This document shows, piece by piece, positions 9,003 through 47,906 of a stretch of DNA of 64,000 nt. The notes under the pieces were generated by a model. The model was not told the origin of the DNA, ran no database searches, and saw only the letters and a list, made by a program, of their open reading frames with translations. The translations under genes and the position numbers were made by a program. How positions within the stretch are numbered: the first letter of the stretch is position 1; every line of letters begins with the position of its first letter. The stretch comes from a virus, in the IMG/VR virus record IMGVR_UViG_3300037467_000723; one strand, 5' to 3'.

Positions 9003-9032
9003 CGTTACAAATCCCCAATTGGGCCGGACTGT
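9003..9032 (+). promoter_or_regulatory. phage-specific promoter-like motif, copy 1 (CGTTACAAA-N9-GGGCCGGACTGT)
   Basis: exact bipartite motif 34 nt upstream of the 9066 start, after a terminator. Confidence 0.6.
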
Positions 9033-9065
9033 CTATCAGAAACAAATATGTAAGGAGCGATAGTC

Positions 9066-9761
9066 ATGGTCGAATTAGAACAATCCACTGCAATTGAAGC
9101 AATTAACTCTGTAGGCAAAGAAGCTTGGTTCCTGTACTCAGGCCTCCGGTTTATGGCGATTGATTCCGTAGTGAACATCACACATGCGGAAATGGCCGAG
9201 CTACTGGGAGTGTCGTTGAAATTCGTACAGCGGCACATCAAGACTCTCCAGGACTTCAGAGTTGGTGATGAAACATTAGTCCGTGCAGTTCGCACAGCCG
9301 AAGGTTATTCCTATGAGGTTACTGCGATCAAAGTAAAGCGCGGCACCACTCCTTTATTGAAACCCAAAAAGAAACAAACCAAGGTCTCCCCTACTAACGA
9401 GTTGTTCGATTACTGGTTGCAGAAGTATCACGATGCTTATGGTGCTCCGTACCAAGTCACTAACTTCGGTAAGGAAAAAGGCCATGTCCGTACCCTAGCG
9501 TCACGTTACGGTGCTGACGTCGAGATGATTAAAGCAATCATGGATGTTGTCATTCGCCTATATCCGACCAAATGGAAGACTGCACAGTTCGCACGTCCTA
9601 CCTTGGGTGCGTTAGTGTCGTGGTTGGCAGCTCAAGCAGAACCGATGGCACGAGCTAACCTGGAAGCGGCCAACGATGCAGATGTTGTGATCACGAGTGA
9701 AGACGGCGAGGATGTATTCGCGGCTTACGATAAGCATTGGAACATTGGAGGGATTGAGTAA
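9066..9761 (+). CDS. putative helix-turn-helix replication/DNA-binding protein (231 aa)
   Basis: N-terminal helix-turn-helix AEMAELLGVSLKFVQRHIKTL; position immediately upstream of the helicase-loader/helicase genes. Confidence 0.45.
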   Translation: MVELEQSTAIEAINSVGKEAWFLYSGLRFMAIDSVVNITHAEMAELLGVSLKFVQRHIKTLQDFRVGDETLVRAVRTAEGYSYEVTAIKVKRGTTPLLKPKKKQTKVSPTNELFDYWLQKYHDAYGAPYQVTNFGKEKGHVRTLASRYGADVEMIKAIMDVVIRLYPTKWKTAQFARPTLGALVSWLAAQAEPMARANLEAANDADVVITSEDGEDVFAAYDKHWNIGGIE

Positions 9762-10084
9762 TGAAGGCACCAGTATTAGTACCGAAAAATGTAGCAGAGG
9801 CATTAGAACACATGCTGAAAATACACGATACGAAATCAGCAACATTAAAAGCCATTCAGCAAAATGGTGATATTGGCAAAAATAGCACGTTGATTTACCA
9901 ACACTTCAATCGTGATATGGAACAGGTATTTGATGCACTGGCTTACGGTTATATTGTCGAGATGACTCCTGAGGAAAAGCTCCGTGAGTACTATAGCTCC
10001 CCTAGTACGAAGCTCTACGAACAGGCGGTTATGCGTACCACACTGACCATTATGGGTCTCAAAGTCGAAGGAGTGAATGCGTAA
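9761..10084 (+). CDS. hypothetical protein (107 aa)
   Basis: ORF, ATGA-coupled. Confidence 0.5.
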   Translation: MKAPVLVPKNVAEALEHMLKIHDTKSATLKAIQQNGDIGKNSTLIYQHFNRDMEQVFDALAYGYIVEMTPEEKLREYYSSPSTKLYEQAVMRTTLTIMGLKVEGVNA

Positions 10085-10278
10085 TGAACGAAACTACTAA
10101 ACGTCTAAAGCAAATCAAAGCCAACTGTAAACGTGGTCGCATGTCCTTTGAAGATATGGATTGGTTGATTGGTGAGTTGGAATTGTTAGATGCAATGACC
10201 ACATTACAGAGTCATGTAATTGAAAGTGCCAATAAACGCATCAAGGAGTTGGAGTCTGATGGACGAAAAGATCGCTAA
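10084..10278 (+). CDS. hypothetical coiled-coil protein (64 aa)
   Basis: ORF, coupled. Confidence 0.4.
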   Translation: MNETTKRLKQIKANCKRGRMSFEDMDWLIGELELLDAMTTLQSHVIESANKRIKELESDGRKDR

Positions 10279-10960
10279 GGTCTGCCCAGCACGGCACACT
10301 TGCAAGCAGCATAACATCCTTTGCGGCAGTGGCTGTCCCCTGTTCGTTGAGTTACGGTATCAAACCGAACTCTCCGGGATCCCGAGGCGGCACCGTAAGT
10401 TCACGATAGAGTCCTTACCGGAAGATACAATTCGACTTGCGGCACTAAAGACATATAACGAAAACATCATTCAACGTGTTAAAGCCGGTCAAGGGCTGTA
10501 TCTACACGGCAACACGGGATCCGGTAAGACCACTGCCCTTGCGGCCCTGGCTATGAGCTACATCGTTGAGGCCTCCAAAACAGCGTTACGAACCGGTCAA
10601 CGTTCAGTTCAGATGGTTCTGTTCCTAAACGTCCCTGAGTTACTGGCTGGGTTGAAACGTGGGTTTGACGATCCAGCCGAGCAGATCATTTGGGCGTCAA
10701 AGTTATCCCTAGCACGTAGGGTTCCCCTATTAATTCTCGATGACATCGGTGCAGAAAAGCCGACAGAGTGGGCCCGGGAACGCCTAACAGAGATTATCGG
10801 AGCTAGGTATGATAACGAACGCACTACCCTAATTAGCAGTAATTTAACCTTACCGGAGCTCAAAGAGCACATCGACCCTATAGGGCGCATCACGAGTCGG
10901 ATCAGCGGCATGACGATCCCGATGGAGTACAAAGGTAAGGATCGGAGGAAGCCTATATGA
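10258..10960 (+). CDS. DnaC/IstB-like AAA+ helicase loader
   Basis: Walker A HGNTGSGKTT; Walker B LLILDDIGAEK; N-terminal Cys cluster; start chosen at MDEKIAKV with ribosome-binding site aaggagttggagtctg. Confidence 0.7.
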
Positions 10961-12231
10961 TTGAGTTACTACTATTAAATGCCTTGATTGCCACTCGTGA
11001 TTATCACGCCTTACAACGACATGCTTTGAACTCGCCTTACCATTTCCAGGAGCAACGTGCGGCGTACGATTTCATTATCGACCATCTAGAAAAATACAGT
11101 GAGCTCCCCTCTCTGGAAAGTGTCGTTGCTGCATGCGATGACTTCGAGGCCATGGAAGTTACGGAGTCCATCGATACACTGTGTATGAAGCTGGCAGAGC
11201 GTAACCTAAAGATAGAACAAAAGGACACTTTGAAAAAGTTGGCGGCACTGTTCGGTGAGAAAGATGGTTACGAGATCCAGGACGAATTTAAGAAGCATAT
11301 GGAGCGCCTCGAGAAGAAAGCATCAGCACGAACCAAGAACGGATCCAACTGGGCTGTCAATGGGGATGACCGTGAGGCCGAGTACAAGCGTCGACAGTCG
11401 CAAGATTTCAGTGTCAAGATCCCCTTCTTCTTTGACGAGTTTACGCAAGCAACCGGTGGTGCCGAGCGCGGCGATGTGTGCGCGATCATGGCGTCAACAT
11501 CAATGGGAAAATCGTGGCTAGGTTTGAAACAAGGATTAGTCGCGCATAAGGCTGGCTTTAAGGTGCTCGTTGAGTCCGGTGAGATGTCTAAGCCAGAGAA
11601 CGAATTCCGATTAGATACGCTCGATGCTGGCTTCTCTAATAAAGGGCTATGGACAGGTGAACTTGATGACGAGCACGACTACTTACAGTATCTGAAACAG
11701 TTCAGTAAGGGCAACGGTAAGGCCGACCTAATTATTAAGACGGCACAGGATTGGCCGAAAGGATTAACGCTCGAGCAGATCCAGTACGATGCTGAACAGA
11801 GCAAGGCTGACGTCATTGTCATTGACCAATTCTCGTTACTACGATTCAAGTCGGGATCCAAGGAAGATAAAACCACCTTCTCTCGTCAGCTAAAACAATT
11901 GGCAGCCAAATTAGGCGTAGTGATCGTGCTGCTGTACCAGACAAACGGTGCTTACCTTAAGAAAATTAAAGAAGACGATGAAGGCATTACCGAGCTCGTA
12001 CTGCCGACCTTAGACGACTATTCAGAATCCATCGCAGTGATCCAGGACTCCTCCTTCGTATTCGGTTGGGCCAGTGTCACCTGGAAAGATGAAAAGACAG
12101 GACGACGTCGCGGTAAGGGCATCGCCGGTATCCTTAAGGCGCGGTACGGAGGTGCTGGCACGGAATGTGATGTTGAGTTCTGCCCTAACGATGGCATCAT
12201 AAGGCCACGTCAAGCAACGGATATCTTCTAG
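10957..12231 (+). CDS. DnaB-like replicative helicase (424 aa)
   Basis: RecA-fold Walker A ASTSMGKSWLGL; DnaB-like N-terminal domain; operon context. Confidence 0.7.
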   Translation: MIELLLLNALIATRDYHALQRHALNSPYHFQEQRAAYDFIIDHLEKYSELPSLESVVAACDDFEAMEVTESIDTLCMKLAERNLKIEQKDTLKKLAALFGEKDGYEIQDEFKKHMERLEKKASARTKNGSNWAVNGDDREAEYKRRQSQDFSVKIPFFFDEFTQATGGAERGDVCAIMASTSMGKSWLGLKQGLVAHKAGFKVLVESGEMSKPENEFRLDTLDAGFSNKGLWTGELDDEHDYLQYLKQFSKGNGKADLIIKTAQDWPKGLTLEQIQYDAEQSKADVIVIDQFSLLRFKSGSKEDKTTFSRQLKQLAAKLGVVIVLLYQTNGAYLKKIKEDDEGITELVLPTLDDYSESIAVIQDSSFVFGWASVTWKDEKTGRRRGKGIAGILKARYGGAGTECDVEFCPNDGIIRPRQATDIF

Positions 12232-12271
12232 ACGGCCTTGACACAAAAGACGACGCACAGGGAGTGATTAA

Positions 12272-12571
12272 ATGCAGAATTGGCACGTTCTCAAAAAGGA
12301 TGAATACGGCAATAAGTACGATATAAGGATTCTCTTTAGAGACAACAAATTATTGATTGACGATGTAGGTTATATTCCAAAAGGTAAAAGAAAACCACAG
12401 TTTTTAGGCGCGAAATTAACTGATGATTATGGTTGGAGAGTGTTAGCGTGGGAAGGTAGGCGAGAAGCGGTAAAGAAAGAAATATTGAAAGTAGTACCTA
12501 AACACCTGCTTTTAGAAGCGCTGACCGAAACATGGACACAGTTACAACCAACTGAAATCGAATTTAACTAG
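12272..12571 (+). CDS. hypothetical protein (99 aa)
   Basis: ORF with ribosome-binding site. Confidence 0.5.
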   Translation: MQNWHVLKKDEYGNKYDIRILFRDNKLLIDDVGYIPKGKRKPQFLGAKLTDDYGWRVLAWEGRREAVKKEILKVVPKHLLLEALTETWTQLQPTEIEFN

Positions 12572-12606
12572 TGTCGTCTTACGACTAAATTATGCAGGAG
12601 GATTCT

Positions 12607-12762
12607 ATGGAACAGTTAGTGTTTATCGTAATTATCGGAGTTATTCTTATGGTCGTTGGTATATTTGTACTTGGGTTTTTGGTAGCGAAATTCGGAATTA
12701 TGGTGCTCGTATTCGCACTGGCCTTCATCGGCTTAGTGGTGGTACTAGCGACTCTACTATAA
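12607..12762 (+). CDS. small membrane protein (51 aa)
   Basis: ribosome-binding site gcaggaggattctATG; almost entirely hydrophobic (two transmembrane helices). Confidence 0.35.
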   Translation: MEQLVFIVIIGVILMVVGIFVLGFLVAKFGIMVLVFALAFIGLVVVLATLL

Positions 12763-12829
12763 GAGTTAAACGAGGCGATCCGATAAGGGTCGTCTTTGAC
12801 CCAAAGTGTGTCGGAAAGGAGGAAGTAAA

Positions 12830-13018
12830 TTGAGATTCAGATTAGGTGACATTGTTCGGTTTAAGCCTGAAAAAGAAATATTAGGACTACACGAAGTTAC
12901 AGGAATTGGTGAAGGTAGTGAAGTCACACTAACCTTTGATGAATGTAATTCCGAATTTTATGCGGATGAAAATGATTTAATATTAGTTTGTCCTGAGTAC
13001 GAAAGAAGAGATGTCTAG
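12830..13018 (+). CDS. hypothetical protein (62 aa, TTG start)
   Basis: ribosome-binding site aaggaggaagtaaaTTG. Confidence 0.4.
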   Translation: MRFRLGDIVRFKPEKEILGLHEVTGIGEGSEVTLTFDECNSEFYADENDLILVCPEYERRDV

Positions 13019-13040
13019 TTCACACTACGATGATAAGGCG

Positions 13041-13068
13041 TCCCTTCGTCAAGGGTCGTCTTTTTTCG
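13041..13068 (+). terminator. rho-independent terminator
   Basis: cccttcgtcaaggg hairpin plus T6. Confidence 0.5.
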
Positions 13069-13074
13069 TGTCTC

Positions 13075-13205
13075 CCCTCCCCTATTCGATATCGAAAAAT
13101 GTTTAAAAAATGTTTAGAGAATGTATGGACATTCATTTGGGCGTTATGCTATATTGGTAACACAGGAAACATTTTCTATACAGTGTTTAAACATTCATTT
13201 GATAA
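13075..13205 (+). repeat. parC-like centromere candidate (repeated ATGTTTAAA / ACATTCATTTG motifs flanking the parM promoter)
   Basis: aaaatgtttaaaaaatgtttaga ... acattcatttg ... aaacattttc ... gtgtttaaacattcatttg; extended -10 TGcTATATT at 13157-13165. Confidence 0.45.
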
Positions 13206-13220
13206 TTGGAGGAGAAACTA

Positions 13221-14252
13221 ATGACAAACGTAAGCAAAAGAGCAGCTGTAACAGTGGGTAAGGAGAAGAAAGCAACATCATTATACGCAATCGACCTGGG
13301 GAACGGCTTCACTAAAAGGGTATTCGATGGCAGTGACGTCATCGTCGAGCCAAGCGTATTTTCCGAGGTTCCACGAATCAACAATTCAGATCGTAACTAT
13401 TTTACTCTTGATAATAAGCTTCAATATTTTGTCGGGCAAGATGTATTCGACCTAAATTTAGATCCGGAAGTTGCAGTCAACGACAGGGAACGGTACTTCA
13501 CGGATGAGTACAAACAGATGCTGCTGGGATTCATCGCAAAGGACTTTGGTACATTCGATATAATCGAGATTCCGGTTCTAGTGCTGGGCGTACCGAACAC
13601 AGATCACGAAGCAATCGGACCACAGCTTGAGGATTTCTATAGAGGAAAGTCCATCATCAAGATCGATGGGCATCACCAGTTAACTATCGATATCAAGCTT
13701 TGCATCGTACTTCCACAGCCACTCGGGACTTATGCTTATGCCGTTGCTAACGGAATCGTTGAAGAGTGGGGAGACAACGTACTAGTGTGTGATGCTGGTA
13801 CGGGATCCTTCGATGTGGCGTCAATCACAGGTGACCTAATCAAACGTGACGAAGGTTTAACTCTCGGAGCCCTGGATGCGTATATGGAAATTCGTAAGTA
13901 TCTGATTAGACAGCACGGCAATTTATCGGCAATCACTGTAGAGAACATGCCTAACATCTTAGCTAACGGTGTTCGAAAAGACGGTGCTGCCACGGTTATT
14001 AACGATGATCCGAGGGTTATCGAAATCCTAGACAAGAACTTCAATGAGATGTACAAATTCGTCAAGCAAGCTAAGTTCGATTTCGACGCCCATACTACTG
14101 TACTATGGACGGGAGGAACATCTCTATTGCACCAGGAACGCATCGAGGCTAAGAAGAAGAATACATTCGTTGTCCTGGCTGAAGCACAAACGGCCAACGT
14201 TCTAGGCTTCTATGCTATCGCCAAGGATATTGCTGAAGAGGAGAATTTATGA
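13221..14252 (+). CDS. actin-like ATPase of the ParM/Alp family (344 aa)
   Basis: phosphate-1 motif AIDLGNGFTKRV; DAGTGSFD (phosphate-2/adenosine-like); ribosome-binding site ggaggagaaactaATG. Confidence 0.65.
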   Translation: MTNVSKRAAVTVGKEKKATSLYAIDLGNGFTKRVFDGSDVIVEPSVFSEVPRINNSDRNYFTLDNKLQYFVGQDVFDLNLDPEVAVNDRERYFTDEYKQMLLGFIAKDFGTFDIIEIPVLVLGVPNTDHEAIGPQLEDFYRGKSIIKIDGHHQLTIDIKLCIVLPQPLGTYAYAVANGIVEEWGDNVLVCDAGTGSFDVASITGDLIKRDEGLTLGALDAYMEIRKYLIRQHGNLSAITVENMPNILANGVRKDGAATVINDDPRVIEILDKNFNEMYKFVKQAKFDFDAHTTVLWTGGTSLLHQERIEAKKKNTFVVLAEAQTANVLGFYAIAKDIAEEENL

Positions 14253-14596
14253 TGGAGCAAAAGAAGTTTCAGATGTACGTGAATCCGGAAACGGATCCCA
14301 AGCTATACAGCTTCATCGAGTCTATCGAGAAGGGTGCTCCGTCCAAGAAGGGTTATGTAGTTGACCAGATCAAAGAGATCTTACGTGCTTGGTCAGGACT
14401 AGTCGATATCTACGGAGAGAGGGACGTCCTTACCCTCGCTCTCCACCTTGCGGCCGGCAACCCACCAAAACCACCGGAAACGGTACCACTGGTAGTGGGG
14501 GAGAGGGAAGATGTTAAGTCCGAAAGAGGGACGTCTTTGCCGAAAGGAATCGGAGGAAAGTTTGCACAGAATCGGTTTAATCGTGATATAAAATAA
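14249..14596 (+). CDS. putative ParR-like adaptor (115 aa)
   Basis: small ATGA-coupled gene downstream of the ParM-like gene; no sequence-level proof. Confidence 0.35.
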   Translation: MMEQKKFQMYVNPETDPKLYSFIESIEKGAPSKKGYVVDQIKEILRAWSGLVDIYGERDVLTLALHLAAGNPPKPPETVPLVVGEREDVKSERGTSLPKGIGGKFAQNRFNRDIK

Positions 14597-14634
14597 AAAA
14601 GCGACTCCATTGTGGGGTCGCCTTTCTTTTTATC
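14596..14634. terminator. bidirectional terminator
   Basis: aaaaaa-gcgac-tccattgtgggg-tcgc-ctttcttttt between convergent genes. Confidence 0.6.
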
Positions 14635-15145
14635 TGTGATATACTCCATAACCACCGTGGCCATCTGGCAGTATGACATTTGAGTCCAACAATATATTAA
14701 ATACCAGGATACCGACTACAAGAAGCAAGATAATCGAACCTGTAATTCGGATTCGTCGACTGTCGATGAACTTAAGTCTTTTTATCGGTAAAAACTTTAT
14801 TAGCATTGCGTATATCCACATCACAAACCCTGTAATAAACGACAATCTACCGGCTTCATACTGTGGTACGGTAACAAATAGTTTAGTGCGTTCATTCTTC
14901 TTAAGTTTGGTTACATGAATCTCCTCTGCGTCTGGATCCGGTACCATGCGTGTATCCTTTAGTACATAAACCATGATCGCCATACCGATAATAATACCTA
15001 GAAGAACGGCCGAGACGTCAGTAGCTGTGTTCTTGATGATAACTGCCGTGTGATAATCGAAATTTCTCAGCAACCAGTTTAATACATCAACAATTGGCCC
15101 ATCATTGTTTACTTTATAATGACCTTCAAAATGCTTGGGGTTCAT
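14630..15145 (-). CDS. multi-pass membrane protein (171 aa); candidate superinfection-exclusion/RexB-like function
   Basis: 3-4 predicted transmembrane helices; co-oriented downstream of the CI-like repressor. Confidence 0.5.
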   Translation of the reverse strand: MNPKHFEGHYKVNNDGPIVDVLNWLLRNFDYHTAVIIKNTATDVSAVLLGIIIGMAIMVYVLKDTRMVPDPDAEEIHVTKLKKNERTKLFVTVPQYEAGRLSFITGFVMWIYAMLIKFLPIKRLKFIDSRRIRITGSIILLLVVGILVFNILLDSNVILPDGHGGYGVYHR

Positions 15146-15168
15146 ATGTCAACTCCTAAGATGGAAGA

Positions 15169-15606
15169 TTAGTCTGGAAAGTTTTTGTATAGCTTGTACA
15201 TCTGGTCAAATAGCTTTTGTTTCTTTTCATCTGTAAGCTTTTTATCACGTTTGATTTCTACTAATAGATCCTGGAGACTATTTGCTTCATCAAGTTGCTC
15301 TCGCGCCAACAAGGGAACCCGACCAAGCAGTTCAAACAAGCAGGTTTCGTCTATTTCATAGTAATCCGATATCTGACGTATGAAATGGTCACTCATTGAT
15401 TTTACACCCTGTTCGATATTTGACAAGTAGGCAGCAGAAACTCCCAATTTTTTACCTAAGTCAGCTAATGATAAGTCGTTGTCCGTCCTAAGTTGCTTCA
15501 AATAGGCCCCGGCTCTTAACTGCCCCATTAGCTTCTCTTGTTGGTTGTGCATGTCAGCGTCAATTTTTTCTATATCAATACTTTTTTTCCCCTGTGACAG
15601 TTTCAC
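15169..15606 (-). CDS. CI-like XRE-family repressor (145 aa)
   Basis: helix-turn-helix LSLADLGKKLGVSAAYLSNIEQG; divergent from the replication genes; palindromic operators in the upstream intergenic region. Confidence 0.65.
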   Translation of the reverse strand: MKLSQGKKSIDIEKIDADMHNQQEKLMGQLRAGAYLKQLRTDNDLSLADLGKKLGVSAAYLSNIEQGVKSMSDHFIRQISDYYEIDETCLFELLGRVPLLAREQLDEANSLQDLLVEIKRDKKLTDEKKQKLFDQMYKLYKNFPD

Positions 15607-15640
15607 CAGCTCCTCTCTAAGAACTATGTACGAATTTTTA

Positions 15641-15800
15641 TTATAACATTATTATAACATAACTTCTTAACCTTGTGGTTAATGGCAAAAATTGCATCTA
15701 ATATTACTCGCGGTTGTTATTGCTATGTAACATTTGTAATTATATAATAATATAGTTCCAACACGTTAACCACTTGGTTAACATGGTTACGTTAGCGGAT
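15641..15800. promoter_or_regulatory. divergent promoter/operator region
   Basis: direct repeat ttattataaca x2; palindromes TTAACCttgtGGTTAA (15667-15682) and GTTAACCacttGGTTAAC (15765-15782); AT-rich with TTGCAT/TATAAT-like hexamers. Confidence 0.5.
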
Positions 15801-15873
15801 TAAAGTATAATTATCATTGATTTTGCGAACGGTTGTTCGTATAATTAAGAAAGAAAATATTTTTTGAAAATCG

Positions 15874-15903
15874 CGTTACAAACCTCGAAATGGGCCGGAC
15901 TGT
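15874..15903 (+). promoter_or_regulatory. phage-specific promoter-like motif, copy 2
   Basis: CGTTACAAA-cctcgaaat-GGGCCGGACTGT, 23 nt upstream of the primase GTG. Confidence 0.6.
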
Positions 15904-15925
15904 TATGGCGAAGGGGTGAAGTGAC

Positions 15926-16894
15926 GTGATCATACGTTCTATCCGTATCGAATTAGACATACATGATTATCTCGAATCGAAAGGCCTACATAAAGTCCGG
16001 CCGGTTGGTGATAACGTAATGGCTTGCTGCCCGTTTCATGACGAACGAGCGCCAAGCTTCGGTGTAAACAGCGAGACCGGGGTTTACAATTGCTTCGGCT
16101 GCGGTGCTCGTGGGACTATCGGCCATCTGGTGAAAGTACTAGACCGATTCGACACGGTATTCGACGCAGAAACATTTTTGATTCATACCTATGGTCGTTA
16201 TGCTGTTGATCTAGACGATGAATTAACATTAGAATTTGGGGACGAGGCGAGACGTCAGGACTATTTCATCAGCACGGACGTCCTTGATGCTTACAAGTTT
16301 AGACATCCGTACTTAGATGGACGGGGTATTGAAGAATCGTGGCAGCGTTTCTTTGGTATTGGCTACTCGAAACAGCATCGAGCAATTACGATTCCTTGGT
16401 ATGACGAGGATAGTAGATTAATAACTGTAAAGTTTCGTAGTGTACTAGATAAGAAGTTTTGGTACGATCCACCATTGCCTCCTGGTCTAAAGGCAGAAAC
16501 GTTATGGGGCTTCAACAAGATACTGCGGCACGGCTTCACTAAGGTGGCACTTACTGAGGCTGAGATTGATGGCATATCCGTTTGGCAAGGCGGTGCTCCA
16601 CGAAAGATCGGAGCAGCTGGCATAGGAGGCAATCAATTTAACCGAGCACAAGCAGATAAGTTAATACGTAATTTACCGACCTACTCAGAAATCATCACCT
16701 TCACGGATAACGATAAGGGTGGGGAACACGCAAAGGAACTAATATCCGATTACTTATCGGGGAGATTTCGTCTGTCAGAAGTCGATTGGTCGTTAATTGA
16801 TCGAGAGGTCAAGGACGCTAACGATCTTACTAAAGAAGAAATCGGTTTGTTGCTGGACAATAGAAAGCCGATGGGCGTTAAATTATTCTTCTAA
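15926..16894 (+). CDS. DnaG-type DNA primase (zinc-finger plus TOPRIM, 322 aa)
   Basis: CHC2 zinc finger CCPFHDERAPSF...CFGCGARG; TOPRIM-like EAEIDGISVWQGG...DNDKGG. Confidence 0.7.
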   Translation: MIIRSIRIELDIHDYLESKGLHKVRPVGDNVMACCPFHDERAPSFGVNSETGVYNCFGCGARGTIGHLVKVLDRFDTVFDAETFLIHTYGRYAVDLDDELTLEFGDEARRQDYFISTDVLDAYKFRHPYLDGRGIEESWQRFFGIGYSKQHRAITIPWYDEDSRLITVKFRSVLDKKFWYDPPLPPGLKAETLWGFNKILRHGFTKVALTEAEIDGISVWQGGAPRKIGAAGIGGNQFNRAQADKLIRNLPTYSEIITFTDNDKGGEHAKELISDYLSGRFRLSEVDWSLIDREVKDANDLTKEEIGLLLDNRKPMGVKLFF

Positions 16895-16921
16895 CACAAT
16901 AGACAAAGGGGTCAGCTCAAA

Positions 16922-40008: not shown

Positions 40009-40236
40009 TTATGCAGACTTTTTCTCGTCAGCGTAAAATTTACCTTCTTTAGGGTTAGATACTACGCCAAGCACAGTAAGAACTCCAAGTAATGCGGTAA
40101 CAGCAGTTGATACCTTCACGTCAATTCCAGCCGGTAAGTGGAACCCAAATAACGGTGCCAACGCTTGAGCGCATAAAACCAAAGCTGATGCTAATGACAT
40201 CCAAAAACCGTAATTGTGTAATCTTGCTTTCATCAT
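40009..40236 (-). CDS. holin-like membrane protein (75 aa)
   Basis: two transmembrane helices; adjacent to the lysis genes. Confidence 0.55.
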   Translation of the reverse strand: MMKARLHNYGFWMSLASALVLCAQALAPLFGFHLPAGIDVKVSTAVTALLGVLTVLGVVSNPKEGKFYADEKKSA

Positions 40237-40724: not shown

Positions 40725-40787
40725 AAAAAGACGGACGCCACGAAATGTAGCGCCCTGTAATATGTGTACATAATGTACACTTTAATG

Positions 40788-41573
40788 CTATCCAAGTAAC
40801 TTCCTCCAAGTGTAAAGGCCACAGATACCGTCAGCTGCTAAGCCTAGTTTCTTTTGGAATCCCTTTAGAGCTGCCTCAGTGTGTGGTCCGAATGAGCCAT
40901 CTGGCGTACCTAACTCGAAACCTTTCTTTTCAAGCAACGTTTGCATAAGCTTAACTTCAGCACCTGTATCTCCCTTGCGTAAAACAGAGTGGGTTACCGG
41001 TTTAGCGACAGGAGCCGGATGTAGGCGTTTGTGAACCTCAGCTTTGAAGCGAACTAATTCAGATGGTTTCTTAATCCATGGAAGAGGGCAGTCTTTCCAA
41101 CCAACGACAGCTTTATGAGTCGTGATATCTCCCTCGTCTAATCCGTATAGCTTACATAGGTAAGCAGCTAGATCAGCAGCGTTCTGGAACGTTTTCTCAG
41201 TGATATTACCGTGCTCGTCTAAACACATTTCGATACCGACTGTGCAGTTATTCGGATATGAACCGAATTTCTTTAACGCTTCTGGCGTATAAGTTTTAGA
41301 TCCAACGTGGTACGCCATTTCAACGACACCTGGCTTATAAGGAAGGGCAGCAACGATAGCTACATCATCAACCTCGAATGTGGCCGAAGCAAAACGGGAT
41401 CTCTCATCGTTAGGATCTTGTTTGCGTAGATTAGCGAAGTATTTCGCAATTGCTACAGCAGACGCTCCAGGATCGGCAGTATAGTGCATTACAATTCCTT
41501 TCACTTTTTCGATCTTCGTTCCTTTACGTGAAAATCGGTTTACTGGAATAAACATTTCTGTAATTGGTAACAT
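40788..41573 (-). CDS. endolysin: N-acetylmuramoyl-L-alanine amidase plus PG_binding_1 domain (261 aa)
   Basis: amidase_2-like N-terminus (HYTADPG...E); C-terminal LRKGDTGAEVKLMQTLLEKKGF...DGSFGPHTEAALKGFQ. Confidence 0.8.
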   Translation of the reverse strand: MLPITEMFIPVNRFSRKGTKIEKVKGIVMHYTADPGASAVAIAKYFANLRKQDPNDERSRFASATFEVDDVAIVAALPYKPGVVEMAYHVGSKTYTPEALKKFGSYPNNCTVGIEMCLDEHGNITEKTFQNAADLAAYLCKLYGLDEGDITTHKAVVGWKDCPLPWIKKPSELVRFKAEVHKRLHPAPVAKPVTHSVLRKGDTGAEVKLMQTLLEKKGFELGTPDGSFGPHTEAALKGFQKKLGLAADGICGLYTWRKLLG

Positions 41574-41594
41574 TTCAATACCTCCGTTTAATTG

Positions 41595-41885
41595 TTATTT
41601 GAAAAATCCTGGTAATACAGCAGCACCGAGAGTGATAATCGCAGTAACTAGACCACCGACAATCTTGCCGTTACGGTCTTTCATCGCCGTCATCTCTTCG
41701 TCTTGGTTAGCTATTTTCTCTTCCAGACGCTTGACGGTTGCTTCGAGCTCAGTTCTCGGGACGTACTTTTTATCAATGTTGTCTAATAGGGTGTCTAATT
41801 TTGATTCCATACGACCCATCCCTTTTTCGATGTTTTCGACTGCCTTCTCGACTACTGCAATACGCTCGTTGTTTTCGTGCTCCAT
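41595..41885 (-). CDS. XhlA-like hemolysin/lysis-accessory membrane protein (96 aa)
   Basis: coiled-coil N-terminus plus C-terminal transmembrane helix IVGGLVTAIITLGAAVLPGFF; position as in PBSX-like lysis cassettes. Confidence 0.55.
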   Translation of the reverse strand: MEHENNERIAVVEKAVENIEKGMGRMESKLDTLLDNIDKKYVPRTELEATVKRLEEKIANQDEEMTAMKDRNGKIVGGLVTAIITLGAAVLPGFFK

Positions 41886-41935
41886 CGTTTCACCTCCCTT
41901 CGAGTCAATATAAAAGACGGCCTAGTTATAGACCG

Positions 41936-42166
41936 TCAATCACTAAAGGGTTCGCCCTCATCGTATTCAATTGACTTGACGCAATGGTCTTTCTGGAACA
42001 GGTTTAAAAACTTACAGACGAGATTGCAAAAAGGGCAGTTGTCGTGTTTGGCAACATGCTTACCCAATCTGCTTGAAATCGTTTCGTCCGGATACCCGTT
42101 AAACAGAGCAACATTGAAGAATTGGTCGATGGCAATTAGTAGATTCCAAAAATATCTTTTTACCAT
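41936..42166 (-). CDS. hypothetical small Cys-containing protein (76 aa)
   Basis: ORF between the tail fiber and lysis genes. Confidence 0.4.
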   Translation of the reverse strand: MVKRYFWNLLIAIDQFFNVALFNGYPDETISSRLGKHVAKHDNCPFCNLVCKFLNLFQKDHCVKSIEYDEGEPFSD

Positions 42167-42693
42167 ATGACTGTACTCAACTCGTCTAGGGATTGTGCTG
42201 CGTTAACTTTCGGCCCCAGGTCGTCACGAAGTTTAGAGACGTTACCTGAGATGTGGTACAGATGCGCCACGTAGACCGACTCGAATTTCATTGCATCTAG
42301 AGTTAGACGCACCACATTACCGTCGCTATCGTAAGCAGTCCATTTCTCCTCAGTTATACGACCTTTTTCGAAAGCACGATCCAATTTCTCGAAGTTTTTC
42401 TGTGCTTCATTGTCGCATGAGAATTGATATTCAACGCCAGCAACCGTTGCAGTGAAACGACCTAGGATGGCTTCATCACATGCTACTTTTAGCTTTCTCA
42501 TCTTACTGTTCCGAGCAAGACGTAAATGCGTTTCTTCGTTATAAGTTAGTGCACCATTTTCGTAATGATGAACGAACGGGTTACTGAAAAACGAGTGATC
42601 GTCCGGAACGGAGACCAGAATTGAATTCTGATCCTCCGAACTAGACCACCCGATCACTCGTTTTGTTTCGTCTATCTGAATGAAAATATCCAT
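42160..42693 (-). CDS. hypothetical tail-fiber-associated protein (177 aa)
   Basis: ORF immediately downstream of the tail fiber gene. Confidence 0.45.
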   Translation of the reverse strand: MDIFIQIDETKRVIGWSSSEDQNSILVSVPDDHSFFSNPFVHHYENGALTYNEETHLRLARNSKMRKLKVACDEAILGRFTATVAGVEYQFSCDNEAQKNFEKLDRAFEKGRITEEKWTAYDSDGNVVRLTLDAMKFESVYVAHLYHISGNVSKLRDDLGPKVNAAQSLDELSTVIW

Positions 42694-42706
42694 CGTATTC
42701 TCCTTT

Positions 42707-45583
42707 CTAGTACTCTAGGACATAGCGTAAAACAACGTCATTCGCAGTTGTGGTAGCCGAGCTGTTAGCTGCGTTTCCTGTGATAGTAGTGTTAGTAGGC
42801 GTGAAAGCTTTCGTGATAATAGTGTCCGTCGATGCACTTACATAGGCTCCAATTGCTTCATTATGCATATACCCAAGTGCAGGACTGTTCTTCGGTATAT
42901 AAGTGTAATCAAAGTCAAAGTTGTTAGCCGTAGAGGTTGAAGCATCGTAGTCCGACCACACAAGGATCCAACCGTTTGCACATTGACTTAACGATTTACT
43001 AGGCGTAATAGTCTGAGTATCCGTTAAATAGTAACCACCCGACCATAAAGTTCCTCTAGCTCCAGTTATGACAGGCTCACTGTTTAGGAACACTTGTCCA
43101 TCTAGTACACGTAACGTATCGTAATCATTCGTGAAATCGGTTGACCCAGATGTCTTACCTGACTTAAGCCATTGCATCCCCTCGGTATCTGAAGTAGCTT
43201 CATCATTCATTACGATGTTATTGGCACCGATGATATCGGAGTTATTCAGATTCAATCCATATGACTGCATAGCAGCCGTCCAAAACAAACTAGTACCCGT
43301 AGCAATTCCTCCGGCATAGTTAACGGTGAATTTTGTACTACCGGCAACGTTTAACCCAATAGCGTTTCCTGTGAAAGGGGATGGCGTAAAATAGTTATAA
43401 GTAGCACCCGTAGTGAATGCAACAGTTACTTTTGCACGGATCCAATACAGTACAGCCGTTGAAGCACCGGCCGGAATATTTGCTGTAGTACTCGAAGGCA
43501 TGAATGGTGTACTGTTTGAAACGGCTGCTTTTGCCGTCCAATCGGCTGGAGCAATGAACGTGAATGTCGCATCAGAGCTGAAGTTGTTTCCGGTTGGTGT
43601 AACACCGTTTAAAGTAGTCCAAGCCGTTCCATTCCAATACTCCCATGCGATGACCCCATTAACACCAGCTGTTATGATATCGACTATCTGTCGAGTGACT
43701 TTTGCAGTGTTACCGATGTACAAGTAATGACCAATTGCAGACGGTAATACCTGTGATTGACCAGGTAAACTGACGTTGGCCGAAGGCGTTTGATCTGCAA
43801 ATGCGGATCCATTCCAGTACCAGACTGCCGAGTTATAGTCGGTATTTAATGGCATATAAAGCATGGTGAACCAATTGGCTGAGCCTTTTTGTTCTAGTCT
43901 AATACCATCGGCATTGGCGTCTTGGAAAACGTGCATTAACGTTGCCGGCATGTTTGTATTAACACCAACACGTTGATTCGTTGTGTCAACGTTGAATACC
44001 GGATTCGCGGAGGAGTCCTGTACTTGGAACGTTGTTGTTCCGTTTGTGGACGCTTTGATTAAACCACCAACGAAAGTCGGACTGTCTGTCGTTTGAACGC
44101 CTTGGTTCATATGATAACCATCGACCATATCAGCGTTCAGATTCGCAACAGCTGTTGTTGATGTTACGGTAAACGGTGCTGTACCGGTAGCCACTGTGGA
44201 AGTTAACCGGTTGAATGACGGGCTATCCGTTGTCTGAAGAGCCTGGTTAAAGTTATATCCATCGACCAGATCAGCATTTAGGTTTGTTACTTTTGTAGTT
44301 GAAGCAACGATTAAAGGCGCTGTCCCCGTTGCCACAGCAGATACGATTTGTCCATCCGTTGATATCCCGTCATAGAACGTAATTCCGTATGAGGTATATC
44401 CAGCTGGAATGGAGCCGGCCGTATTTGGTGAAATCAACGACCAACCTAGAGCGCTAATCATCTGAACATTAAGCGTGATGGCGTCAGCACCAGCGTTATA
44501 AACTTCAAGGTACGCATAGTTACCAGAGTAAGTCGTGTGGTAAACAATACGAGCTTGGGTGATTCCGTGTCCAGCAACATAGTTTGAGAACATTACCTGG
44601 TTAATCGTTGCAGATGAAGTGTTTCCGTACATGATACCAGCGTTAAATGTAGCCTGACCGTGAACACCAGACAGAGTCCAATCTAATTCAAACCGTGCTG
44701 CGTTACGAGCGATGCTCGATGCGGACTGAGCAATACGGTACCAACCAGCTGTAGCCGGTAATGTTGCCGATTGTGACGTCTGCTGAGTAAAGCCAGCTGA
44801 ATCGATTCCATCCAACAAGTCAGCGTTCAAATTCGTTACTTTCGTCGTTGATGCTACAGTGAATGGTGCTGTGCCCGTTGCCACGTTTGAGACGAATACA
44901 CCGCTGTTGGAAATCGATGCTTTTGAGACCCCAGCAACTTGGAAGTCAGCAATGACCCCTGTGCCTAACTGGTTAATGTATAAGTTCGGGTTCGGAGAGT
45001 TTCGTTCAATATAGTTAGGACTTACATTACCCTGACCGTTGTTCGAGATAAACCCTTTGACCGTTAAGTCTCCGGTTATTAACGATCCGAACCGTGTTCC
45101 AGTTGTGTTGGATCCTGGAGGGGCTGCTCCACGGCTTGCATCAGCCGTGCTATCTGTATAAATAGTTGTTCCATCTTTGACTGTTGCGATTAAGCCATAC
45201 GTTGCTCCACCCACGGCAGTACGATAGATCCTCGTTGCTACCACGGAAGCAGCTGCTGGGACCGGTAGTGTTACCTTAACTGTCGTGTTTGCACTGGCGG
45301 TTGTGATCGCTAGGGAAGGGGAGACCGTTGTTTCTCCCGTTAATACTAATGTGCCGTCAGATTTGTAATATCCGGTCACGTACGTAAACTGATAGTTATA
45401 TGCTCCGACACCAAGCGTTGATCCAGCTTGACCAACCAAAGAGAAGCCAGTTGTTGTCGGTGCAACCACCGTAGGAGCGAATGTAATCGTTCCAATATCG
45501 TGGGTGCCTTTAAATACATCTACTAGCTGGTTTAAATCCGATGCTTGCGGTAGGCCTCCGACTGTTATGTTATATAAAGCCAT
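42707..45583 (-). CDS. tail fiber / receptor-binding protein (958 aa) with three internal about 27-aa repeats
   Basis: Gly/Thr/Ser/Asn-rich; repeats VATGTAPFTVASTTKVTNLNADLLDG x3; ribosome-binding site aaggaggttaataaATG. Confidence 0.7.
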   Translation of the reverse strand: MALYNITVGGLPQASDLNQLVDVFKGTHDIGTITFAPTVVAPTTTGFSLVGQAGSTLGVGAYNYQFTYVTGYYKSDGTLVLTGETTVSPSLAITTASANTTVKVTLPVPAAASVVATRIYRTAVGGATYGLIATVKDGTTIYTDSTADASRGAAPPGSNTTGTRFGSLITGDLTVKGFISNNGQGNVSPNYIERNSPNPNLYINQLGTGVIADFQVAGVSKASISNSGVFVSNVATGTAPFTVASTTKVTNLNADLLDGIDSAGFTQQTSQSATLPATAGWYRIAQSASSIARNAARFELDWTLSGVHGQATFNAGIMYGNTSSATINQVMFSNYVAGHGITQARIVYHTTYSGNYAYLEVYNAGADAITLNVQMISALGWSLISPNTAGSIPAGYTSYGITFYDGISTDGQIVSAVATGTAPLIVASTTKVTNLNADLVDGYNFNQALQTTDSPSFNRLTSTVATGTAPFTVTSTTAVANLNADMVDGYHMNQGVQTTDSPTFVGGLIKASTNGTTTFQVQDSSANPVFNVDTTNQRVGVNTNMPATLMHVFQDANADGIRLEQKGSANWFTMLYMPLNTDYNSAVWYWNGSAFADQTPSANVSLPGQSQVLPSAIGHYLYIGNTAKVTRQIVDIITAGVNGVIAWEYWNGTAWTTLNGVTPTGNNFSSDATFTFIAPADWTAKAAVSNSTPFMPSSTTANIPAGASTAVLYWIRAKVTVAFTTGATYNYFTPSPFTGNAIGLNVAGSTKFTVNYAGGIATGTSLFWTAAMQSYGLNLNNSDIIGANNIVMNDEATSDTEGMQWLKSGKTSGSTDFTNDYDTLRVLDGQVFLNSEPVITGARGTLWSGGYYLTDTQTITPSKSLSQCANGWILVWSDYDASTSTANNFDFDYTYIPKNSPALGYMHNEAIGAYVSASTDTIITKAFTPTNTTITGNAANSSATTTANDVVLRYVLEY

Positions 45584-45618
45584 TTATTAACCTCCTTAAA
45601 ACGTACACATAATGTGTA

Positions 45619-46110
45619 CTAATTTCCTTTCATTAAAACTTGCCATTGAATCGACAGAGTCGTAGTGTTATCGTGTGATACACCATTTAATGCTACATGA
45701 CTCCATAAATTACCGGCAGAATCGAATAAACCGGCCTCAGTTAGATCAATCGAGCCAGTAGGGTTATTTACGGGATCCACCGTACCCAAGGCGTCAGTTT
45801 GTTGGTAAGTTATCGAGTACTGAACGTAATAGGTTAAGAATGTAGTAGCGTAATCTACACCAAATCTCGTGTTAGCTAATTCGGCCCAAAGTGCTACATC
45901 GGAAGGGGAGGTACCGTTAACGTTGGTTCCCGTACCAACAGCGATTGAGCTAGGAACCGGTACTTGAACGCCTGTCCACATTTGAGCGACTTGGCCCCGT
46001 GCAAAGTTCGTGATCTGGTTTTTAAACACCTGGTCAAAAACGACCTCGCCCGTTTCTTTATCGTGCTTCATTACACGAACGTAACCAACGGCTTCTAAAC
46101 TATCGTTCAT
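45619..46110 (-). CDS. tail/baseplate protein (163 aa)
   Basis: ORF in the tail module. Confidence 0.45.
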   Translation of the reverse strand: MNDSLEAVGYVRVMKHDKETGEVVFDQVFKNQITNFARGQVAQMWTGVQVPVPSSIAVGTGTNVNGTSPSDVALWAELANTRFGVDYATTFLTYYVQYSITYQQTDALGTVDPVNNPTGSIDLTEAGLFDSAGNLWSHVALNGVSHDNTTTLSIQWQVLMKGN

Positions 46111-46380
46111 TTATGTCCACCTCCCGTTAGATCCCCATAACCAGCCACAGGAAGGAGCATTCCAAACCTCGCCTTGGACGTCAGTAGCTACATATGTAGT
46201 ACCGTCCCCCCAAACTTTTGCGGCTGGTGTACTTTGAATGAGGCGAGTGGACTCGACATTCTCCATAGTATCGAAAGGATTCGTATACATTTGGATGAGC
46301 GTGTTACTCGGATCATCATCACTTTCTAGCTGGCCTTTTCTAAGGTCGTTTATTAGCTGAATAAAAGTATCTATTTTCAT
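46111..46380 (-). CDS. hypothetical tail protein (89 aa)
   Basis: ORF. Confidence 0.45.
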   Translation of the reverse strand: MKIDTFIQLINDLRKGQLESDDDPSNTLIQMYTNPFDTMENVESTRLIQSTPAAKVWGDGTTYVATDVQGEVWNAPSCGWLWGSNGRWT

Positions 46381-46391
46381 TTTGTGTCCTC

Positions 46392-47855
46392 CTAAACGAG
46401 ATAAGGTGAGTCAGCGAATTCTATGTTATAGAAAACTATCAGACTACCAGAATCGTTCTTTACAACCGACTTAGAGACACGCTGCACGAACATCACATCG
46501 TTAAGCCCTCCAAAGCGTTTAGTACTTTTTAAGGTAAAGTTCTGACCGGCAACCCAACCACTTTTAGTTGTGGCGTTGAAGTACGCTTCGAATGTTCCGG
46601 AAATTTGCGGAAATCTATACTTTGATAGAATCAATTGGCCCTTTGCCTGTACTGCTGACAACGTAGAATTGGTCAAAGACTTATCTGAATAAACCTCTTC
46701 GTAAACGCCGTCAGTATTGCCTTCAACCTTGGCCGTTACCCCTTGAGCTTCCGGATCCTGACCGAGCCATACCATGTCTTTCAAATAGTGAAAACGTACG
46801 ACAACGACCTTACCAGAAGGTACTGCCCCGTTACCGGAAAAGTTTGGAATTCGAATTAAATGCTGGGTATAGTGGATGTAAGCAGTATTACTATCTCCAC
46901 CACGGTCAGGTGCTCCGTCGATGATGTCACGCTTCAAAGTCAATTTCGTTCCAGCAGTATTGTTATTACCATTTTTGAATGATGTATCTGCGTTATACTG
47001 AGCCATCGAATCGTAAACAACGACTGTTACGTCCCCAGCCACGGAAGAAACACGATATCCCATAGACCATTGGAGCGTTTGCCCATCGCCGGTAAACGGA
47101 AGGTAATACAGTTCGGCTGAACGTGTTTTAAATCCCTTAATGAAGATCTTGTTTACTTGCTGCTCGGAGTTCTCGACAATCTCCAGGTTACCGTAGTTGG
47201 TTATGTCAGTTTCGACATCTAACAGGTTATTCGGTAGGGGAGAGTTAAATGCCTCGAGCGTATACATATGGACGTCCTTATAGTAATCCACGTACCAACC
47301 CATCTGCACCTGATCTGCCACTGACTTAATCGCATCTGACGGTTTTTGATAGTCGGAATATACTGGCGCAATCGTTGTCCCCGAATTTTTTACGTTATAA
47401 GTAGTAAACCCAGGACAGAACGCACTGACCATGGCTTTTACGGTTGTTTCCGGAGCTTGCTGTTGATACCATCCTTGAATAAGATGTCGGTCTAGCCATT
47501 GGACATAAGACTTACAGTGAACCGTGTATATACGTGCTTGGCCCTCCACGGTCTCGTGAACTTCAACGACCACTCCACCAAATTCACGGTAAGGTTTATT
47601 TGAACCATCCGGAGCCGTGATAATAGCGTTTGGATTTTGCCAGACAATTTCGTTACCACACTTTGGTCGAACGAAAGAGACGTTTGTGGACGTCTTGGTG
47701 TCGAGTACGGTGTCGCCAGAATTAATGTACATAGTAAAATCCATAACATCCGAAGTCATAATTACGTTGTTGTCAACGTGAATTGATTCGTACTCAACCA
47801 ATGGAGTAACGTCTAATGTATTTAATAGTATCTGGACTGAGTTTGTTGCTGCCAT
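46392..47855 (-). CDS. baseplate/distal tail protein (487 aa)
   Basis: position downstream of the tape measure gene; preceded by promoter-like motif copy 8. Confidence 0.55.
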   Translation of the reverse strand: MAATNSVQILLNTLDVTPLVEYESIHVDNNVIMTSDVMDFTMYINSGDTVLDTKTSTNVSFVRPKCGNEIVWQNPNAIITAPDGSNKPYREFGGVVVEVHETVEGQARIYTVHCKSYVQWLDRHLIQGWYQQQAPETTVKAMVSAFCPGFTTYNVKNSGTTIAPVYSDYQKPSDAIKSVADQVQMGWYVDYYKDVHMYTLEAFNSPLPNNLLDVETDITNYGNLEIVENSEQQVNKIFIKGFKTRSAELYYLPFTGDGQTLQWSMGYRVSSVAGDVTVVVYDSMAQYNADTSFKNGNNNTAGTKLTLKRDIIDGAPDRGGDSNTAYIHYTQHLIRIPNFSGNGAVPSGKVVVVRFHYLKDMVWLGQDPEAQGVTAKVEGNTDGVYEEVYSDKSLTNSTLSAVQAKGQLILSKYRFPQISGTFEAYFNATTKSGWVAGQNFTLKSTKRFGGLNDVMFVQRVSKSVVKNDSGSLIVFYNIEFADSPYLV

Positions 47856-47876
47856 CTGTAACCTCCTCTCATATAT

Positions 47877-47906
47877 ACAGTCCGGCCCAAATCAGCGTTT
47901 GTAACG
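47877..47906 (-). promoter_or_regulatory. phage-specific promoter-like motif, copy 8 (minus strand)
   Basis: reverse complement reads CGTTACAAA-cgctgattt-GGGCCGGACTGT-atatatgagaggaggttacagATG. Confidence 0.6.

Follow-up and report, generated by a model that had tools for sequence, protein, structure and literature searches.

Which factor reads the 30-nt element that recurs ahead of gene blocks in the virus record IMGVR_UViG_3300037467_000723? The window analysed here is one whole stretch of this DNA, 64,000 nt in length, and the element is the bipartite motif CGTTACAAA-N9-GGGCCGGACTGT, which a sequence-only reading had proposed to be a phage-specific promoter. It is textbook knowledge, from SPO1 and T4, that phages can encode sigma factors with promoters of their own, but to our knowledge very few sigma/promoter pairs have been defined. 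A literature search found no published mention of the motif, and a search of IMG/VR gave no match to its exact form. We consider it likely that the eight copies in the window are promoters for host core RNA polymerase (RNAP) carrying an extracytoplasmic function (ECF)-like sigma factor that the phage itself encodes at 16922–17587.

A search allowing up to three mismatches located the motif at eight sites in the window, seven of them exact and one with a single mismatch, and returned no match in 100 dinucleotide-preserving shuffles (eight observed versus zero expected); the earlier count of eight copies is thus confirmed. When up to eight mismatches were allowed, the hits were bimodal, with eight sites at 0–1 mismatches, none at 2–5 and about 41 at 6–8. 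The last group is at chance level (27–42 in shuffles), and nearly all of it lies in coding DNA. The motif set is discrete, without a degenerate tail, and would make a clean regulon of exactly eight sites. Although about 91% of the window is coding by crude gene calls, seven of the eight copies are still wholly intergenic, and copy 5 (at 23816) overlaps only the last 20 nt of an open reading frame (ORF; 23458–23835).

Seven copies are on the plus strand, and all except copy 5 are exact. Copy 1 (9003–9032; candidate start G 9039) precedes the gene at 9066, which encodes a helix–turn–helix (HTH) protein and is followed by a DnaC-like loader and the DnaB helicase. Copy 2 (15874–15903; G 15910) precedes an operon that holds only the primase (15926–16894) and sigma (16922–17587) genes before a terminator. 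Copy 3 (17668–17697; G 17704) lies before a LysM/Hydrolase_2 gene (17746–18351), and copy 4 (18354–18383; G 18390) lies before an SSB-like gene (18434–19078). Copy 5 (23816–23845; G 23852), which has AGGCC for GGGCC, is followed by a PD-(D/E)XK nuclease gene (23864) and ribonucleotide reductase (RNR) genes. Copy 6 (29143–29172; G 29179) heads an operon starting at 29206 that includes ThyX, and copy 7 (33680–33709; G 33716) heads an operon starting at 33746 with an AAA_18/dNMP-kinase-like gene and including 34833–35210. On the minus strand, copy 8 (47877–47906; G 47870) is located between the tape-measure gene and a 487-aa distal-tail gene (46392–47855) and heads the tail-tip, fibre and lysis block. 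The sequence-only reading had these positions right at all but one site, since the fourth copy starts at 18354 and not at 18355. Its gene identities (primase, LysM hydrolase, SSB, nuclease) stood up to rechecking, and the lytic replication genes that it placed at 9066 are the DnaC-like/DnaB module headed by the HTH protein. Its description of the targets as middle and late genes is too broad, since of the virion genes only the distal-tail/lysis block has a copy, and the terminase-to-tape-measure block has none here or in relatives.

Every copy faces the next gene on its own strand (8/8), as had been claimed. The distances from the motif end to the start codon are 33, 22, 48, 50, 18, 33, 36 and 21 nt for copies 1–8; the measured range is 18–50 nt, so that the upper bound given earlier was correct and the lower bound of 19 nt was not. 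A stem–loop with a T-run, a predicted terminator, lies upstream of five copies (8958–8988 just upstream of copy 1, 17628–17651 at copy 3, 29102–29123 at copy 6, 33634–33664 at copy 7 and 47940–47924 at copy 8). Copies 2 and 4 have only a T-run upstream and copy 5 has neither, which makes the statement that most copies follow a T-rich terminator a fair one. Across the aligned copies, 21 positions are fixed while the N9 and the flanks have diverged. Within the N9, the final base is T in all eight copies, positions 2–5 are G/C-rich and positions 6–9 are A/T-rich. The seventh base 3′ of GACTGT is G in 8/8 copies and is the candidate +1 position.

These regularities can be read as a sigma-type promoter. 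CGTTACA would be the −35 element bound by sigma region 4 (sigma4) and GACTGT the −10 element bound by region 2 (sigma2), separated by a fixed 17-bp spacer in which the 3′ part (T-GGGCCG) would also be constrained, and the transcript would begin 7 nt downstream of GACTGT, at the invariant G. The second A and sixth T of the hexamer would then be the equivalents of A-11 and T-7 of sigma70-type −10 elements, the flipping of which is established in the structural biology of sigma factors.

The proposed reader is a 221-aa protein (16922–17587, plus strand) consisting of sigma2, a linker and sigma4. Its AlphaFold (AF2) model, built from 40 sequences, has a predicted local distance difference test score of 89 and shows two helical domains joined by a low-confidence or disordered linker. 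In a Foldseek search of the PDB, the top 50 matches are all sigma factors (SigH, SigB, sigmaE, SigW and sigmaS), and isolated sigmaE region-2 structures match the model with a target template-modelling (TM) score of 0.62–0.69 and a root-mean-square deviation of 2.6–6.7 Å. At the sequence level, the NCBIfam profile PRK13919 (‘putative sigma E’) aligns end to end with the protein (E 1.7e-8), and tblastn matches it to Thermus thermophilus sigmaE (plasmid sigma-70 family genes) with 29.8% identity over 198 aa (E 4e-8). When the protein and seven homologues were combined into a profile and compared with PDB sequences, the match fell on the N-terminus of sigmaE region 2. An exhaustive profile search found only 27 proteins at E <= 1e-10, and the weaker full-length hits carry Pfam Sigma70_r2 and r4. 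As judged from the model and these matches, the protein is a two-domain, ECF-like sigma factor, in agreement with its earlier assignment to the sigma-70 family. No anti-sigma domain was seen in the ORFs scanned, among which the small ORFs were not exhaustively searched.

The seven sigma homologues share 44–74% identity and are found on metagenomic or SRA-derived contigs, which are syntenic with the window where they are long enough. Every relative has a 30-mer at matching gene junctions in identical register, each with its own sequence, and the 17-bp split between the CGTTACA and GACTGT positions shows no indel in the eight window sites and about 30 sites of relatives. The window and L006 combine the −35 half CGTTACAAA with the downstream half GGGCCGGACTnT; L009 and L010 combine CGTTACAAA with (AGA/TAG)CCGGACTrT. 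In L001, CGTTACArA is paired with (A/G)TACCGGACTGT, and L001 and L258 share the form CGTTACArA..ATACCGGACTGT. The −35 half is TnACACrT in L004 (downstream half AGACCGGACTnT), TGACACG in L007/L008 (GGACCTAACTGT) and CGTTAAA in L005 and also L257 (GGACCTGA(C/T)ATT, i.e. GGACCTGAyATT). Lastly, L259, a contig from a Bacillus cereus isolate, has CGTTACArA-N9-GGGTCGGATTTA at two syntenic junctions. Every variant has A as the second base of the −10 hexamer, and every one except that of B. cereus has T as the sixth. The 3′ end of the spacer is GGGCC in the window and ACC in relatives, with CC invariant.

The junctions themselves are conserved. Variant copies syntenic with copies 1 and 4 are present in L001, L004 and L005, and those syntenic with copy 2, the putative autoregulatory copy, in L001, L004, L005, L006 and L008. 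Copy 3 has counterparts in L001, L004, L005, L006, L007/8, L009 and L010, and copy 5 has counterparts in L001 and L004, where the homologue of the overlapping ORF is RusA. Copy 7 corresponds to a variant copy before the AAA_18 gene in L259. The tail-junction copy, copy 8, is kept in L257, L258 and L259, each time in the variant of that contig.

Changes in the motif are accompanied by changes in the predicted DNA-reading segments of the sigma factor. In the five sigmas of the CGTTACA group, the predicted recognition helix begins with A/T-L-R-N/M-W (residues ~184–188); the CGTTAAA phage has ALANW, and two ACAC-type phages have AKKGW and GRKAW. R186A stands alongside the single C-to-A change of CGTTAAA, and L185, R186 and V193 are changed in both ACAC-type sigmas. 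Among the five CGTTACA sigmas 71 columns are invariant, of which 10 differ in the ACAC-type sigma P0005, and six of these 10 fall within the sigma4 HTH (residues 169–206; hypergeometric p = 0.003, as an indication). The −10 class tracks sigma2 residues 64–98. Here, six columns are invariant in all CCGGACT-type sigmas and changed in both sigmas with an altered −10, and five of the six are located in sigma2 at 60–100 (p = 0.016, likewise indicative). The helix also allowed a prediction: the sigma P0004 has ALRNW, and its 1.2-kb contig L010, read afterwards, shows CGTTACAAA-N9-TAGCCGGACTAT. We infer with moderate confidence that promoter specificity follows the DNA-binding residues of the sigma factor. 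A phage-specific promoter with the 16922–17587 protein as its reader, as claimed for the motif, is supported by the sigma2 and sigma4 fold, the sigma-type geometry, the syntenic conservation and the tracking of motif changes by these segments.

The motif also has relatives outside the phage contigs. A relaxed scan of genome, metagenome and viral contigs with CGTTACARA-N12-CCGGACT (~15 specified bases) gave, among the matches listed, almost only single chance matches in unrelated taxa, and the real ones were confined to two Neobacillus contigs, L102 and L046. Both hold seven copies within ~600 bp: L102 (N. bataviensis NZ_VIVN01000001, 808001–816000) at 1000–1700 on the minus strand and L046 (N. 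pocheonensis NZ_JBCNAD010000052) at 1530–2100 on the plus strand. In these arrays every copy is followed by a tiny ORF or short transcript, the last one by an XRE-like HTH gene, and ordinary host genes (DUF3231, catalase, YolD) adjoin them. The L102 array starts with a terminator and promoter cassette homologous to window 29102–29172. Because its first cassette is homologous to that of the phage, the sequence suggests that the L102 array is phage-derived DNA. An hmmsearch of the 8-kb Neobacillus and Paenibacillus blocks gave no hit to an A1-family sigma.

Several observations weigh against the promoter assignment. For the protein, Pfam alone stays below its curated threshold (Sigma70_ECF, E 0.008). 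The co-variation comes from few lineages (one or two ACAC-type clades and one CGTTAAA type), the residue windows were picked with the model already in view, divergent sigmas differ throughout and the p-values are indicative only; we regard the co-variation statistics as supportive rather than conclusive. For the DNA, the B. cereus variant ends in A and not T, and the spacing from the hexamer to the G is off by one in some relatives. The canonical ECF elements AAC (−35) and CGT (−10) are absent, and in their place the −35 is CGTTACA, CGTTAAA or TrACACr and the −10 is GACTGT or GAyATT. In each phage, a downstream block of 12–14 contiguous bases does not vary, and GGGCC or ACC upstream of the hexamer belongs to it. 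This block exceeds the known reading by sigma2 and may point to a second factor or an unusual contact. Finally, the Neobacillus arrays keep the downstream half (GACCGGACTnT + ATATGTGAgG) with degenerate −35 halves, so that the main determinant may be the downstream half.

The better kept downstream half is also an argument for a different reader. The motif, or mainly its downstream half, could be the site of an activator, either the 34833 protein or the HTH protein 9066–9761, that brings sigmaA holoenzyme to an overlapping weak extended −10 immediately 3′ (TGT-TATAGT-like). Several copies are indeed followed by a TGnTAT-like sequence, such as ACTGTTATAGT at 18354 and most copies of L001. Region-4-only ‘positive control’ proteins (Xpf-like, PRK06930) are known late activators (RinA family, PMC3152322), and a Sigma70_r4-only gene lies ~3 kb from the L102 array. 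The TGnTATAAT-like reading, however, fits only three of the eight window sites, so we rejected it; most relatives lack its key final T. Asymmetry and the fixed 17-bp split set the motif apart from a dimer site, the r4 protein near L102 is unrelated to 34833, and the co-variation points to the 221-aa sigma. Moreover, the 34833 gene lies downstream of a copy, so that its product cannot start the programme. On balance, an activator site with its sigmaA extended −10 is an improbable explanation.

The 34833–35210 gene (plus strand) deserves attention of its own. It encodes a 125-aa region-4-only sigma-like protein (Sigma70_r4, 2.5e-7; phrog_3512, 8e-15; PRK06930, labelled ‘positive control sigma-like factor’, 4.8e-5), as the sequence-only reading had noted, and is 72–77% identical in the same phages, that is, more conserved overall than the 221-aa sigma. 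Between the window protein and P0243, seven positions of the recognition helix are changed, despite the CGTTACA(A/G)A that both phages use, and the protein gave no alignment with SPO1 gp33. With a helix that does not track the −35 class and no similarity to gp33, we rejected it as a co-reader or gp33 analogue; the suggestion that it might help to read the motif is probably wrong. Because its gene is located downstream of copy 7, the protein is probably a member of the motif's regulon and a separate, perhaps late, regulator with its own target.

A host alternative sigma, for example a sigmaD/sigma28-like or host ECF factor, might instead read the motif while the phage sigma-like protein is employed elsewhere. 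The L005 variant, TAAA-N14-CCTGATAT, is loosely like the sigmaD consensus TAAA-N15-GCCGATAT, and the multi-copy arrays lie in Neobacillus chromosomal contigs beside DUF3231 and catalase genes. However, the spacing and hexamers are unlike the consensus sequences of sigmaD, B, H, W, X, M or the sporulation sigmas. A host reader would also leave unexplained why closely syntenic phages each have a different variant that tracks their own sigma, and the L102 array opens with the phage-like cassette described above. We therefore regard a host sigma as very improbable.

The positions, directly behind terminators and no more than 50 nt from start codons, would also suit an element that acts in RNA, in processing, antitermination or as a leader of read-through transcripts, and six hammerhead-like cores between the early genes indicate RNA-level devices elsewhere in the phage. 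But on neither strand do the 42-nt motif windows show a fold that is stable or shared (z-scores mostly >= 0 versus shuffles), the variable N9 has no compensatory pattern, and Rfam at the gathering threshold gives no match at the motif. The 7 + 17 + 6 bipartite geometry and the protein co-variation are promoter-like, so a role in RNA is hardly plausible. That the copies are merely recently duplicated terminator–promoter cassettes with a shared history has next to no probability: cassettes 29111–29182 and 33648–33719 are 88% identical over 72 nt, terminator included, but the other copies have nothing in common outside the motif, the N9 and flanks have diverged around 21 fixed positions, and relatives at 44–74% protein identity keep copies at the same junctions.

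With the copies read as promoters of the phage sigma, the region upstream of its operon suggests how the system would be switched on. A sigmaA-type promoter, TTGATT-N17-TATAAT (15817–15845, plus strand), lies 29 nt upstream of copy 2 with a CGAAC-GGTT-GTTCG inverted repeat in its spacer, and a sigmaA-type promoter before the sigma operon is conserved in L001, L004, L005, L006 and L008. A divergent XRE/HTH_31-family repressor-like gene (15169–15606, minus strand; HTH_31/HTH_3 in the syntenic genes, NCBIfam HTH hits) is separated from the operon by a 319-bp intergenic region. This region contains two 16-bp palindromes TTAACC-N4-GGTTAA (15667–15682 and 15766–15781), 99 bp apart, which are putative operators, and a similar TTAACCACTGAGTTAA is found in L007. 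Duplicated A/T-rich blocks also occur in the divergent region (15590–15935) between the XRE-type gene and the primase–sigma operon.

The first primase–sigma transcripts would come from the sigmaA-type promoter, gated by the divergent XRE-type repressor at the palindromic operators. The new sigma would then fire its own promoter (copy 2) in positive feedback, together with seven other units. These cover replication (helicase loader/DnaB, SSB, PolA and nucleases), a cell-wall hydrolase, nucleotide metabolism (RNR, ThyX and the kinase), the region-4-only regulator and the distal-tail/lysis block, and the terminators just upstream of five copies would insulate the units from each other. Since the sigma gene lies downstream of a motif copy and of a conserved sigmaA-type promoter, we infer a simple circuit, from sigmaA to the phage sigma to itself and seven units. 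The sequence-only reading had proposed a SPO1-like cascade. The comparison is apt for the promoter sequence; the circuit would be simpler than the three-sigma cascade of SPO1 and includes no gp33 homologue.

We compared the system with SPO1 in more respects. The SPO1 late promoter consensus is CGTTAGA(N17-19)GATATT (PMC3601020). CGTTACA-N17-GACTGT of the window is nearly superimposable in layout (6/7 and 3/6 matches with N17), and CGTTAAA-N17-GA(C/T)ATT of L005 is the closest (6/7 and 5–6/6 matches). In both phages a small sigma without sigma3 redirects, or would redirect, host Bacillus-type RNAP, and the sigma gene adjoins the primase gene. The proteins themselves are only weakly related: hhalign of SPO1 gp34 with the window sigma gives a probability of 47% and E 2e-4 over 105 columns. 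In three relatives the gp34 family phrog_1025 is matched at E 2.8e-5 to 4.9e-3, values that do not surpass those of the generic sigma family phrog_351; the window sigma has no phrog_1025 match and hits phrog_351 alone, at 9e-4. In the window, 34833 does not supply a gp33 homologue, and no gp28-type middle sigma is present among the ORFs scanned. The phages also differ in kind, since the window phage has a siphovirus-like virion module (tape measure, tail tube), ~67 kb and plasmid-like genes, whereas SPO1 is a 132-kb herellevirus. Unlike the SPO1 late system, the window sigma would control replication genes and its own gene, and not head genes.

ECF sigmas (E. coli sigmaE, B. subtilis SigW and T. 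thermophilus sigmaE) have the same sigma2–linker–sigma4 architecture and are the best sequence and fold matches. They likewise combine rigid promoter spacing and high-information −10 and −35 elements with a sigma gene behind its own promoter, the arrangement that copy 2 represents before the primase–sigma operon in the window and its syntenic relatives. For ECF promoters, effects of the spacer sequence on selectivity have been reported (PMC5758882). The system here differs in that the sigma is phage-borne and would be gated by a repressor-controlled sigmaA promoter, not by regulated proteolysis. Like the PBSX Xpf-type and RinA/ArpU late activators, 34833 has only a region-4 HTH and would be expressed from a motif copy, which suits a regulator of the next tier; unlike theirs, its gene is not adjacent to terS. 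T7-type promoters are also near-invariant long sequences before gene blocks, often just after terminators, but the T7 promoter is a continuous 23 bp and the motif is bipartite with an unconstrained 8-nt centre. No single-subunit RNAP domain was found: the ORFs >400 aa that were scanned (Pfam/PHROGs; 58127 was not scanned) are otherwise assigned to DnaB, PolA, RNR, tape measure and TerL, apart from ORFs 46392 and 42707 of the tail block, which have no family match. In its working, the system thus appears to resemble both the SPO1 late system and the autoregulated ECF sigmas, but we do not count it as a member of either family.

The resemblance to the late consensus of SPO1, which dates back 40 years, suggests a promoter type that is not confined to SPO1-like phages. 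The relatives form a natural allelic series in which altered −35 and −10 halves are paired with sigma4 and sigma2 substitutions (e.g. R186A with CGTTACA to CGTTAAA), and the series gives directly testable hypotheses on the recognition code of two-domain sigmas. Such sigma/promoter pairs could supply orthogonal expression parts for Bacillus. The passage from a repressor-gated sigmaA promoter to an autoregulated phage sigma also offers a possible route by which a phage with plasmid-like genes could commit to the lytic cycle. A wider picture can be drawn, in which ~60–70-kb Bacillaceae phage-plasmids of an undescribed family carry a self-contained, co-evolving orthogonal system with at least six natural sigma/promoter specificity variants, bacterial chromosomes exploit this system, with the Neobacillus arrays as sensors, decoys or satellite switches triggered by the phage sigma and not as phage remnants, and the 12–14 bp block is a linker or extended −10 contact not described for two-domain sigmas. 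Taken together, these proposals are unlikely.

The distribution of the copies follows the layout of the genome. Neither megablast with 9 kb of the window nor tblastn with the sigma gave a match in 50,697 phage records, and the phage thus has no described close relative. The left arm, on the plus strand, contains small early genes, a resolvase, the DnaC-like/DnaB module, the actin-like ALP gene and the divergent XRE-type repressor-like gene, and also the primase, sigma-like, LysM hydrolase, SSB, PolA, nuclease, RNR, ThyX and kinase genes. The right arm, on the minus strand, contains tRNAs, terminase, a capsid-like protein and the tape measure, followed by the distal-tail and lysis genes. Seven of the units with a motif copy are on the left arm, and on the right arm only the unit starting just after the tape-measure gene has one. 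The head genes of the window have no copy. Because the head/tail/lysis stretches of L257 and L258 (21 kb) each hold a single copy, at the tail junction, the lack of copies at head genes is a conserved feature. A degenerate copy considered upstream of the tRNA/terS block (62830–62875, minus strand) was rejected, as it has >=8 mismatches in register, which is chance level. No promoter of the terS-to-tape-measure block was found, with no motif copy in the region upstream of terS and none within ~2 kb beyond the right end of the window on the near-identical 4-kb contig L260. SigmaA-type promoter-like matches are fewer than in shuffles in 28500–48400 (24 versus 36.2 +- 6.0), which counts in favour of the promoter assignment, and are at the expected level in 1–20000 (38 versus 35).

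A tRNA cluster is located directly upstream of terS (61789–62253, minus strand, and 62640–62830), with tRNA-Ile(TAT) and tRNA-Ala by ARAGORN and a third tRNA by Rfam at 61789–61852. Many ACGTT(A/T)A repeats occur in the region before the cluster. Past the right end, beyond a 127-aa gene (63080–63463), L260 (4.1 kb) has a long non-coding stretch in which CGGCTTTTTT(CC) is repeated many times; after it comes a strong sigmaA-like promoter (TTGACA...) that adjoins another GGTACACATTATGTGTACA palindrome. This stretch may be an origin, a packaging or an early-promoter region. The near-palindrome GTACACATTATGTAC occurs at 3283, 6075, 22075, 40766, 45605, 56968 and 59587; at <=3 mismatches it gives 12 strand-matches where 2.0 would be expected. 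Most often it stands just upstream of a ribosome-binding site, in both arms, for example before the capsid-like gene and between TerL and the next downstream ORF (58127–59557), and one copy is in the spacer of a sigmaA-like promoter (6068–6097). It could be an operator or a small RNA hairpin.

The early small-gene operon contains the six hammerhead-ribozyme-like cores, all on the plus strand (676–731, 1387–1444, 1786–1831, 2484–2535, 3255–3300 and 4185–4250). They follow the pattern CUGAnGAG – hairpin – CGAAAC – hairpin, and each occupies an intergenic gap right after a stop codon. The best of them (1779–1831) is a full-model match to Rfam Hammerhead_1 at 26.2 bits, against a gathering score of 34 (E 0.006). 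The early polycistronic RNA may be self-cleaved between genes.

Finally, the window has plasmid-like features. Four ~31-nt iterons (7160–7302) lie within ORF 6707–7681, a small serine recombinase/resolvase is encoded at 7776–8576 and the actin-like ALP segregation protein at 13206–14252. L002 has a RepA_N winged-helix gene at the position of this plasmid-like module. Among tail proteins, a 37%-identical relative is found on a 70-kb Paenibacillus hexagrammi plasmid (NZ_CP090979.1) and a 66%-identical one on a 63.8-kb Bacillus cereus contig. Together, the plasmid-like genes and these tail-protein relatives suggest a phage-plasmid lifestyle.

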